Assembly (NCBI GenBank): GCA_963739345.1
Contig: CAVUAA010000001.1
Location: 859,749 to 923,748, forward strand
Source of the DNA: an uncultured Verrucomicrobiae bacterium
GTDB taxonomy: Bacteria > Chlamydiota > Chlamydiia > Chlamydiales > JAFEGQ01
DNA: 64,000 nucleotides
Direction of reading: 5' to 3'
Numbering within the stretch: the stretch's first letter is position 1; each line of letters opens with the position of its first letter. Of the stretch, positions 11,335 to 34,355 are shown piece by piece. The position numbers were made by a program, and so were the translations under genes. The notes under the pieces are model-generated. The model saw nothing but the letters and a program-made list of their open reading frames with translations, was not told the DNA's origin and did no database searches.

Positions 11335-12410
11335 GAATCCAATTCTAGGTGGTTGAGGATCGTGGTGTAAAGGTCGGTCTCTGGCTCGGGTGCGGAAGGA
11401 GGGTTTAGGGGGGTGTCGAGGGCGGCGAGAAGACGCTCTTCAGTGAGGTCTGTTTCGAGGATTTTGAGGGCGCCACCCCACGAGACTGCGCAGTCAGCAT
11501 TGGCGTTTTGATGGTCGTCAGCTGCATGAGGGTAGGGAATGAGGATGGCCGAGATGCGGTAGGCGAGGTGCTCGGCGATGGAGGAGGCACCAGCGCGCAT
11601 GATGACACGATCGGCAGCAGACCAGACGAGGGGCATGCGGGTTTCAAAGGGGACGACGTGCGCAGGAAAAGGATAATGGGGAAGCGGGTTGCCGTGGCCG
11701 GTGAGGTGGATCACTTGGATGTTTGGGCGGGTAGAGAGGGCGGCGTGGGCGATCTGATTCAGACGAACGGCTCCTTGCGAGCCGCCGAGGACGGCGATGG
11801 TGGTGCGGTCGGGTTCGAGGCCTAGGGCGATGCGGGCAGCTTGAGGGGTGTGGGATTCGATGGGGCGGAGGGGAAGGGGGATGTGGATCCCATTATCGAT
11901 GGGAGTATTGGGAAACTGAACACCAGTGAAGAGGGCCCGTTTGGCGAAAAGGCGGTTGACAAGACCGGGAGTGGCATTCCCTTCGTGGAGAATGATGGGG
12001 GTGCGACCGAGGGTGGCAGCGAGAAGGACCGGGAATGTATGGAAGCTTCCAAACCCAACCACCAGATCGGGTTTGAAGGACGAGAGAACTCCTAAGCTTT
12101 GGAGGGTGCCATTTGCAATGCGCAGAGGCTTGCGCGGGCGACCGGAGGGGACCTCGACGAAACGGAACTCGCCGCGGGCAAAGAAGGGCTTGTCGGTTAG
12201 CCCGCCGGCGACAAAGAGAATTTCAGGGCTAGAGGGATGCGCCTGAAGCTGGCGTGCCAACGCCTGTGCGGGAATCAGATGCCCCCCAGTCCCCCCTGCT
12301 GTGATGACGATCCGAACAGCGACCGAGGGGTCAGGCCTGACAATTGGACATTTGCTGGCAAATGTCCAATTGTCAGGCCTGACCCCATCGCTGCTCTTCT
12401 TTTTTCCCAT
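11331..12410 (-). CDS. murG: UDP-N-acetylglucosamine--N-acetylmuramyl-(pentapeptide) pyrophosphoryl-undecaprenol GlcNAc transferase
   Basis: ITAGGTGGHLIPAQALARQL motif and dcw context. The first ~28 codons include 20 codons supplied by the 60-bp palindrome at 12327-12386. No alternative start codon lies between the palindrome and the GGTGGH motif. Confidence 0.88.
   Translation of the reverse strand: MGKKKSSDGVRPDNWTFASKCPIVRPDPSVAVRIVITAGGTGGHLIPAQALARQLQAHPSSPEILFVAGGLTDKPFFARGEFRFVEVPSGRPRKPLRIANGTLQSLGVLSSFKPDLVVGFGSFHTFPVLLAATLGRTPIILHEGNATPGLVNRLFAKRALFTGVQFPNTPIDNGIHIPLPLRPIESHTPQAARIALGLEPDRTTIAVLGGSQGAVRLNQIAHAALSTRPNIQVIHLTGHGNPLPHYPFPAHVVPFETRMPLVWSAADRVIMRAGASSIAEHLAYRISAILIPYPHAADDHQNANADCAVSWGGALKILETDLTEERLLAALDTPLNPPSAPEPETDLYTTILNHLELDS
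12327..12386. repeat. 60-bp near-perfect palindrome (29-nt arms, 2-nt centre) carrying two GTCAGGCCTGAC cores
   Basis: GGGGTCAGGCCTGACAATTGGACATTTGC-TG-GCAAATGTCCAATTGTCAGGCCTGACCCC. It shares the GGGGTCAGGCCTGAC terminus with the element at 34043-34163. Confidence 0.9.
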
Positions 12411-31883: not shown

Positions 31884-34042
<2,159 letters not shown>

Positions 34043-34163
34043 TTTGGGGTCAGGCCTGACATCATGACATCTCTCAACTTTTGCTTTGTCAGTCCGGGTT
34101 AATACGGCCAACTGTGACAACATATTTGTTTAGAGATGTCATGATGTCAGGCCTGACCCCAAA
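34043..34163. repeat. palindromic element: perfect 32-nt inverted arms around a 57-nt loop, GTCAGGCCTGAC cores
   Basis: TTTGGGGTCAGGCCTGACATCATGACATCTCT (34043-34074) is the exact reverse complement of 34132-34163. It starts 1 nt after the groEL stop. Confidence 0.9.
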
Positions 34164-34169
34164 TTAGAA

Positions 34170-34355
34170 TCAGTGGATATCGCGCTGCACGGGACGGATG
34201 ACCGTCCGTATCTCCTCAATCTCCACCCCCATCTGCTCTTCAGGAGCCTCAACAATCTCCTGATGAACCTCCTGCTCCTCCTGCTCCGACTCCTGACGCG
34301 CCTCGCGCAACACCTTCCTCTGCGTCTTGTCGTTGTGATGCACTGGATCTTTCAT
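34170..34355 (-). CDS. possible small acidic protein (61 aa)
   Basis: The ORF has an upstream GGGGGTGG SD-like sequence and a highly acidic, low-complexity composition. No family was recognised and it could be spurious. Confidence 0.25.
   Translation of the reverse strand: MKDPVHHNDKTQRKVLREARQESEQEEQEVHQEIVEAPEEQMGVEIEEIRTVIRPVQRDIH

Follow-up and report, generated by a model that had tools for sequence, protein, structure and literature searches.

The element analyzed here is a long palindromic sequence (34039–34167), able to fold into a stem-loop and lying between groEL and a convergent small open reading frame (ORF), in a 64,000-nucleotide stretch of contig CAVUAA010000001.1, referred to below as the window. 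It is very probably a non-autonomous, REPIN-like doublet, composed of two inverted copies of the terminal inverted repeat (TIR) of a TIRtron, each starting with GGGGTCAG, and related to the TIRYT transposases, which fall within subclass 2.1 of the RAYT enzymes (tyrosine transposases associated with REPs, the repetitive palindromes of extragenic DNA). TIRtrons are RAYT-like genes with long flanking inverted repeats, the product of which has been named TIRYT (Di Nocera et al. 2013, BMC Genomics 14:522, PMC3733652); they share the terminus GGGGWSAS and are accompanied by repeat families of moderate abundance, in which dimers and clusters occur (PMC3733652). An anonymous palindrome is thereby assigned to a class of mobile DNA that can be identified, and for which a candidate enzyme can be named.

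Structure of the element

The first-pass annotation had described a perfect stem of 32 bp, formed by the arm TTTGGGGTCAGGCCTGACATCATGACATCTCT (34043–34074) and its exact complement (34132–34163), 57 nt apart. Arms and spacing were confirmed, while the perfect stem proved to be longer, 36 bp (34039–34074 / 34132–34167, left arm CTAATTTGGGGTCAGGCCTGACATCATGACATCTCT): four additional nucleotides pair on each side, CTAA with TTAG, and the groEL stop codon TAA (34040–34042) falls inside the stem. The distances to the neighbouring genes were correctly given, the 32-bp arm beginning right after the groEL stop, and 6 nt separating position 34163 from the TGA of the small ORF. Imperfect pairing continues inwards, into the interior or "cargo" of the element (34075–34131, without strand; 34075–34091 against 34115–34131), extending the arms to 53 nt, 87% of which paired, and leaving a loop of 23 nt. 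The fold is extremely stable on both strands: the + strand RNA is predicted to fold at -84.9 kcal/mol (z = -14.3; none of 200 shuffled sequences folded as well), the - strand RNA at -82.7 kcal/mol (z = -12.6), and the element as single-stranded DNA at -48.6 kcal/mol (z = -15.1). Its G+C content, 0.42–0.46, is well below the figure of about 0.6–0.65 found in the flanks.

The whole palindrome, designated doublet A (34039–34167, without strand), consists of two inverted TIR units plus the interior. The left unit (34043–34074, + strand) contains TTTGGGG, a core and ATCATGACATCTCT, and fits the consensus WWTGGGGTCAGGCCTGACATTCKGACATTT, derived from 120 distinct units of other genomes; the right unit (34132–34163, - strand) is its exact reverse complement. 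An nhmmer profile built from the same 120 units recognizes both, with E = 1.4e-8 and 1.2e-8, respectively. The core is the 12-nt perfect palindrome GTCAGGCCTGAC (left 34049–34060, right 34146–34157, both without strand); since it is its own complement, the two cores of doublet A are also 12-bp direct repeats, and they bound a 97-bp segment which is missing from a close relative (see below).

This 12-mer is found four times in the window (12330, 12372, 34049 and 34146), versus 0.19 expected, and none of 100 shuffled sequences reached four copies. The two copies outside doublet A belong to a palindrome at the ftsW/murG junction, already suspected to be of the same kind and indeed a second family member (doublet B, 12327–12386, without strand, 60 nt), composed of GGGG, the core, a 14-nt arm, TG and then the inverse. 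Both doublets open with the same bases, fitting the TIRtron terminus, and their arms, ...ACATCATGACATCT in A and ...ACAATTGGACATTT in B, fit the unit consensus. Doublet B is 87–90% identical to the 53-nt doublets which flank a transposase gene in the Parachlamydiales metagenome-assembled genome (MAG) CALOCV01. Searching the whole window with the unit profile returned four units only, those of doublets A and B.

A repeat family in other genomes

A collection of 185,579 species genomes (one per species, GTDB r232) was scanned for two exact cores lying 28 to 88 nt apart. Doublets were found in more than 117 stretches among the matches listed, mostly in Chlamydiota MAGs, with dozens of copies each; again among the matches listed, at least 38 loci were contributed by JABDEO01, at least 18 by CALOCV01 and at least 16 by CAWACC01, along with others in JAJACO01, JABDDS01 and further genomes. 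The conserved terminus, (W)TTGGGGTCAGGCCTGAC-A-N4-GACAY, recurs as inverted doublets, organized as in the window, TTGGGG-core-arm ... arm'-core-CCCCAA, and near-identical classes of doublets, 53, 71 and 98 nt long, are present within a genome. Altogether, the fetched loci contain 134 units of the left type, 128 of the right type, 11 solos and 77 doublets, as well as nested arrays. The proposal that the palindromes belong to one family, constant at the terminus and variable inside, is borne out by these inverted pairs, and further copies clearly exist; the common end is real, but about 28 nt long rather than the 15 nt originally attributed to it.

Also represented among the matches listed are MAGs of Gammaproteobacteria (a Coxiellaceae bin among them), Syntrophomonas, Tissierellia, one Verrucomicrobia MAG and a MAG labelled Elusimicrobiota, with a GC content of 61–63%. 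Outside Chlamydiota, the core is found in loci L099 (JABDBV01), L007, L017 and L087 (DAIEGU01), L074 (Coxiellaceae), L005, L042 and L050 (Syntrophomonas), L081 (Tissierellia), and L051, L092, L097 and L109 (JAYTSX01); L099 and L081 also carry a transposase gene. The occurrence of copies in Gammaproteobacteria, Firmicutes and the Elusimicrobiota-labelled MAG suggests horizontal spread, or possibly reflects binning errors. Matches in Myxococcales, Streptomyces, Mycobacterium, Pseudomonas, Microbacterium, Actinomycetes and Chloroflexales were discarded as unrelated, being direct repeats devoid of the GGGG/CCCC flanks.

The 71-nt doublets of JABDEO01 (L012, L063, L067, L083, L088 and others) sit in a larger asymmetric repeat, TGAGCGGGCATTGGGG...CCCCAATGCCACGCGT, in both orientations, so that the repeated unit is longer than the doublet in this genome.

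Association with Y1/HUH transposase genes

In seven genomes (loci L037, L080, L099, L081, L125, L126 and L127) the same repeat adjoins or flanks a gene encoding a Y1/HUH transposase. Four of these loci (L037, L080, L099 and L081) had been fetched by DNA motif, and in each of them an ORF of 315–335 aa is found between or beside units: it lies between a left-type and a right-type unit in L037 and L099 (where it measures 317–335 aa), between two complete doublets in L080 and between two direct units in L081. The encoded proteins feature the Pfam domain Y1_Tnp ("Transposase IS200 like", 5e-15), along with a C-terminal Bac_DnaA_C domain, and the HUH (NHxH), catalytic YIHxNP and WSSH motifs are invariant in the four transposases, which are 27–62% identical to each other. 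At E <= 1e-20 the family includes 5114 proteins, some of which called RayT by their sources. A sequence search of the PDB with the transposase detected DnaA domain IV only, and no TnpA_REP.

The association also holds in the reverse direction. Three homologues (L125, L126 and L127) were picked by protein similarity alone, and all three genes turned out to be flanked by inverted repeats starting with GGGGTCAGGC: an exact 30-nt repeat in L125 (GAAAGGGGTCAGGCCTGACATTCGGACATTTG), a 29-nt one in L126, a Simkaniaceae MAG (GGGGTCAGGCCGGACATTCGGACATTTGA), and a 16-nt one in L127 (TTGGGGTCAGGCTTGG).

Repeat and gene are moreover physically interlocked. The genes of L037, L080 and L099 end with ...Q A * (...CAG GCC TGA), the TGA being located within the core, and the 3' end of the transposase gene extends into the downstream repeat in L125 and L126. 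In CAWACC01, doublets of 111 nt retain the last 19 codons of the transposase gene: doublets are therefore internal-deletion, non-autonomous derivatives of a gene-bearing element, comparable to REPINs. In the fetched loci 77 doublets are found versus four transposase genes.

Many TIRYT homologues are located on contigs of only about 1.0–1.3 kb, approximately the length of the gene, which fits assemblies breaking at the flanking repeats.

Target sites, location and arm complementarity

TT and AA, flanking the arms of doublet A, had been suggested as a possible target-site duplication. They are instead part of the conserved outer palindrome, TTGGGG...CCCCAA, of the element itself. In 68 doublets no direct repeats were found in the flanks, i.e. 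no target-site duplication: the outer palindrome, in most cases TTGGG or GCATTGGG, stops after 3–19 nt, and no relationship is seen between the bases that follow. The absence of a duplication fits transposition of single strands by HUH enzymes, and speaks against a MITE (a miniature transposable element with inverted repeats) of the DDE type. According to a crude ORF call, 55 out of 61 doublets are intergenic, many of them less than 40 nt from a stop codon, and 10 lie between divergent genes.

The two arms of a doublet change together. When 45 distinct doublets are aligned without gaps, 93.3% of the cells are paired, versus 81.6% in shuffled sets, and changes on both sides are found in 165 cells, versus 58 +/- 5 (0 of 500 shuffles reached this value), although such counts can be inflated by kinship among copies, which were collected by exact cores. 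Compensatory changes are present at all 17 variable pairs, and controls in which the arms had been slid pair at 22–44% only. For the 71-nt class of JABDEO01 (doublets of 71–77 nt) edit distances were used, as MAFFT set symmetric indels asymmetrically: the arms of one element differ by 0.29 edits, versus 2.16 between copies, and indels are mirrored. An inverted doublet hairpin, the arms of which are kept complementary, is a trait shared with REPINs.

In the Parachlamydiaceae MAG CAWACC01, truncated copies are also found outside the units, 123 of them oriented the same way, against none the other way round, and in 67 the cut falls right after GGGGTCA. As judged from the sequences, this pattern hints at a putative recurrent break-and-join point in the core. 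The truncated copies vary in length, and all restart at the same outer bases. The same genome contains nested arrays, of the form L L L .. R R R, in L048 (958–1185), L053 (6602–7108), L084 (5904–6160) and L015 (3881–4060 and 4836–5024).

The orthologous groEL site in relatives

Three states of the site following groEL could be identified in related genomes: empty, occupied by a 24-bp solo palindrome, and occupied by the 121-bp doublet of the window. The site is empty in L003/L004, where groEL is 83% identical and its TAG overlaps the stop of the small ORF (GAT TAG TGG), and in L122/L123, where groEL is more distant and the two stops overlap in the same way (GAC TAG TGC). In L001/L002, where groEL is 86% identical, the 24-bp solo contains one core (GACTAA-TTTGGGGTCAGGCCTGACCCCAAG-TCAGAATCA). 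The window shows the same outer sequence as L001/L002, plus the second core and the interior.

Alignment of the window to L001 by blastn breaks at the 12-mer, as window positions 34060 and 34146 both align to L001 5321–5332; the two sequences hence differ by a 97-bp indel, made up of one core and the interior and lying between 12-bp direct repeats. The 28 nt common to both are 100% identical, versus 89% and 82% in the 300-nt flanks; the chance of finding 28 identical nucleotides at 85% identity is 0.85^28, about 0.01. Since these bases are identical in spite of diverged flanks, the site was occupied before the split of window and L001, or else insertion took place twice, and the terminus has been conserved. 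The perfect arms had been read as suggesting recent mobility or strong selection; for a recent insertion they are not good evidence, as the outer palindrome is already present in L001, with flanks at 82–89% identity, and arms co-vary throughout the family. Solos with the same outer bases are found in other genomes as well. The broader notion of a mobile element is in agreement with the many dispersed copies elsewhere, the presence or absence of the element at an orthologous site and, in other genomes, a cognate transposase.

The exact insertion point is ambiguous. It may correspond to a CTAG, with TA duplicated, or lie three codons inside the old groEL end, the alternative being based on the resemblance between CCAGAAGATTAG in L003 and TCAGAA--TCAG in L001.

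Proposed mechanism

Both the enzymology and any activity of the system in this genome we infer by extrapolation from TnpA of IS200/IS605 and from E. coli TnpA_REP. TIRYT would act in trans on single-stranded DNA, recognizing the hairpin formed by the 12-nt core together with the GACA-containing arm, and would cut and rejoin one strand with no duplication of the target. Doublets may in this way be spread or removed, mostly in intergenic DNA near gene ends. Predicted substrates of the enzyme are TTGGGGTCAGGCCTGACATTCGGACATTTG, the full 53-nt doublet and the solo. At the groEL locus, doublet A would have entered the overlapping stops of groEL and of the small ORF in an ancestor common to window and L001; later, the window lineage would have gained 97 bp (core plus interior), or L001 would have lost them, keeping one core. 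Since the core is self-complementary, a doublet carries the same hairpin at its two ends on one strand. Cuts at the same position in both cores would free a core together with the interior, a solo being left behind; this is the difference observed between window and L001.

Several observations weigh against assigning the element to a REPIN-like population served by a TIRYT. The invariance of the core is only apparent, because copies were collected by exact cores. The best NCBIfam match of the transposases is indeed the REP-associated tyrosine transposase model NF047646, but their scores, 66.6 and 70.8 bits, are under the cut-off of 80. No homologue of the transposase was detected by tblastn in the 64-kb window, nor is any protein of the source contig among the 120 TIRYT homologues listed. 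Only two doublets are present in 64 kb, with arms matching at 8 out of 14 positions, and no high-copy population is demonstrated here; the exact 22-mer of arm A had 0 matches in JGI metagenome contigs. To our knowledge, no TIRYT has been tested biochemically.

Alternative explanations

The position of the element, exactly between two convergent stops, its extremely stable fold on both strands and the complete conservation of the 28 nt shared with L001, against flanks at 82–89% identity (the same chance of about 0.01), would all suit a locally evolved regulatory hairpin, kept by selection and non-mobile, acting either as a bidirectional terminator or as a stabilizer of mRNA 3' ends. A U-tract was, however, sought after the stem, and none was found on either strand, the + strand reading AATCAGTGG and the - strand TCGGCGTCG; a terminator scan gave no site at the element; and no Rfam family matched at gathering score and E <= 1, the only similarities being to eukaryotic miRNA precursor models, with 30 bits versus cut-offs of 85–105. 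Lacking U-tract, terminator site and Rfam match, a canonical bidirectional terminator, as proposed by the first-pass annotation, is not supported. Two related lineages are moreover without the element, their stops overlapping, and the same 28-nt terminus is found at more than 100 unrelated loci listed, as well as around transposase genes. We thus consider an exclusively regulatory origin very unlikely; a secondary regulatory role is compatible with a mobile element.

A classical MITE, mobilized by a DDE transposon of the IS630/Tc1-mariner type and inserted at CTAG with duplication of TA, would account for the way in which the window copy may be read, GAC-TA-[ATTTGGGG...CCCCAAAT]-TA-GAATCA, and for the empty site of L122, GGACTAGTG, i.e. 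CTAG. TA is, however, self-complementary, so that TA..TA is indistinguishable from a chance extension of the palindrome, and the outermost palindromic bases of the 68 doublets are TT, AT, GA, AA, GG and others, TA being found in one; the right flank in L001 reads GT-CA, and all partner genes found encode a Y1/HUH transposase, none a DDE enzyme. Such an origin appears extremely unlikely.

A REPIN-like doublet leaves room for different histories of the groEL site. It is possible, if less likely than not, that the 24-bp solo came first and served as a landing pad, a 97-nt circular single-stranded intermediate (core plus interior) being integrated at the core; alternatively, replication slippage between the 12-bp direct repeats may have removed the interior in L001. 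Window and L001 differ by precisely one core and the interior, other genomes contain solos that have these outer bases, and both the nested arrays and the 123 truncated copies in one orientation, 67 of which cut after GGGGTCA, point to a recurrent site of breakage and joining in the core. Slippage across a hairpin bounded by direct repeats is, on the other hand, a well-established deletion route and yields the same product; only two lineages are occupied, which fits either direction of change, and no circular intermediate was seen. A bolder version of the same idea, which we rate as doubtful, sees the 12-nt core as the attachment site of TIRYT: cuts, perhaps after GGGGTCA, would free a circle of core plus interior, solos would be landing pads at which repeated integration would build the CAWACC01 arrays, the symmetric changes of the arms would stem from hairpin-templated correction rather than from slow compensatory selection, and core and enzyme, as one module, would have passed by horizontal transfer between Chlamydiota, Coxiellaceae-like Gammaproteobacteria and other phyla. 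If this were true, abundant REPIN-like populations would exist for a RAYT branch thought to be without them.

Relation to known systems

The closest parallel is provided by TIRtrons. Shared features are a RAYT-like gene of the Y1/HUH type that encodes an additional HTH/DnaA_C domain at the C-terminus (in the other genomes analyzed here), inverted flanking repeats starting with GGGGWSAS, and a repeat which overlaps the 3' end of the gene and is also found alone, as dimers and in clusters. Published cases are, in contrast, mainly from Proteobacteria and Acidobacteria, with families described as "moderately abundant", while here a 12-nt perfectly palindromic core is present in dozens of copies per genome in Chlamydiota MAGs. 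Most TIRYTs fall into TnpA_REP subclass 2.1, with a Bac_DnaA_C/HTH extension, and no REP-like repeats have been reported near subclass 2.1 genes (Quentin et al. 2018, PMC6006769); abundant REPINs are described only for RAYT groups 2 and 3 (Bertels et al. 2017, PMC5581495).

With REPIN-RAYT systems (Bertels & Rainey 2011, PMC3116915; Nunvar et al. 2010, PMC2817692) the family has in common two inverted short repeats which, with a spacer, form a hairpin, the doublet as the dispersed extragenic unit, a low-copy transposase flanked by the same repeats, the lack of target-site duplications, the maintenance of arm complementarity and vertical inheritance at an orthologous site. Differences concern the unit, the consensus of which is without GTAG or CGTC tag and features a 12-nt perfect palindrome plus a non-palindromic arm, versus an imperfect palindrome of 20–40 nt, and the enzyme, which comes from another RAYT branch and remains below the NF047646 cut-off.

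The IS200/IS605 family, with its palindrome-associated derivatives (IS608, ISDra2), would share with the present one the Y1 HUH chemistry, the recognition of hairpin ends on single-stranded DNA, integration without target duplication and seamless excision. Its own ends are, however, two unlike subterminal hairpins and not long inverted repeats, TIRYT is about twice as long and carries an HTH domain, and neither a cleavage site nor a target sequence has been described for TIRYT. Finally, MITEs of DDE transposons, such as Correia, Nezha and RUP, are similar in size (about 50–150 bp), in their terminal inverted repeats and variable interior, and in their intergenic location, often beside stops; they differ in that no target-site duplication is found here, and in that the partner is a tyrosine (HUH) transposase.

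In the literature search no paper was found to contain the 12-mer in such a context, the term TIRYT was encountered in two works only, and no description of such repeats in Chlamydiae was retrieved. The kind of mobile element is ordinary, while the family appears to be undescribed in Chlamydia-like bacteria. REPIN/RAYT systems, so far studied mainly in Gammaproteobacteria such as enterobacteria and pseudomonads, would be extended by doublets which are abundant in Chlamydiota and tied to RAYTs of the DnaA-HTH branch (TIRYT), from which such populations were thought to be absent. The family may also prove useful, since it offers a simple, perfectly palindromic core for biochemistry, a site in three states (empty, solo, doublet) for the study of gain and loss, and a probable example of spread across phyla.

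Effects on neighbouring genes

For the groEL locus alone the consequence is probably modest. The stable 3' hairpin could protect both convergent transcripts, as a putative side effect, and a stem starting inside the stop codon could, by analogy, hinder the termination of translation; Liang, Rudd and Deutscher, in 2015, reportedly observed that translation is lowered by E. coli REPs lying no more than about 15 nt from a stop. Any effect on the mRNAs of groEL and of the small ORF would be a by-product of the position of the element.

Doublets supply or overlap stop codons, as in groEL, in ftsW (12373) and in the transposase gene, and an open frame may even run across them, as happens at the N-terminus of MurG. 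Gene ends are changed in this way, which is relevant to annotation. Doublet B lies in the overlap of ftsW and murG: FtsW ends with ...RWGQA*, its TGA (12373) being inside the right core, and this QA* ending is the same found in the transposase genes. The MurG ORF, starting from the ATG at 12410, which is preceded by GGAGG 3 nt upstream, translates the whole of doublet B in frame (GVRPDNWTFASKCPIVRPD), and the Pfam domain of MurG starts at residue 34, after the part encoded by the doublet.

Neighbouring genes and other repeats

The gene upstream of the element (32473–34042, + strand), whose stop lies in the stem, is a groEL paralogue similar to chlamydial groEL3. Its nearest named relatives, 62–68% identical, are chlamydial or, more generally, from the PVC group ("60 kDa chaperonin 3", Parachlamydiaceae, Protochlamydia, Verrucomicrobia). 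The reading frame is interrupted by a +1 frameshift at a GGGG run (32694–32697, within window positions 32690–32700), which is one base longer than in L001 and L003; the deposited protein P0003 (445 aa) begins downstream of it. The frameshift reflects either a homopolymer assembly error or a pseudogene.

The convergent ORF (34170–34355, - strand; TGA at 34170–34172) encodes 61 aa. It has no Pfam match, and a metagenome scan with the protein yielded no confirmed relative; its synteny is, however, kept in L001–L004 and L122–L124, and conservation of gene order in these related metagenomic contigs shows the ORF to be a genuine gene.

A third perfect inverted repeat of the window (63751–63791 / 63837–63877), with arms of 41 nt lying 45 nt apart, each near-palindromic around GGGACAGTCCC, is located at the 3' end of an ORF with a metallo-beta-lactamase fold (62999–63793). 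It was checked for kinship with the doublet family and none was found, no copy being present in any fetched locus.

In L128 (11579–11770; GCA_041166445.1), a more distant relative whose groEL is 68% identical, no core is found across 21.6 kb. Here thiamine-biosynthesis genes, which follow a THI-box-like leader, sit between groEL and the small ORF.

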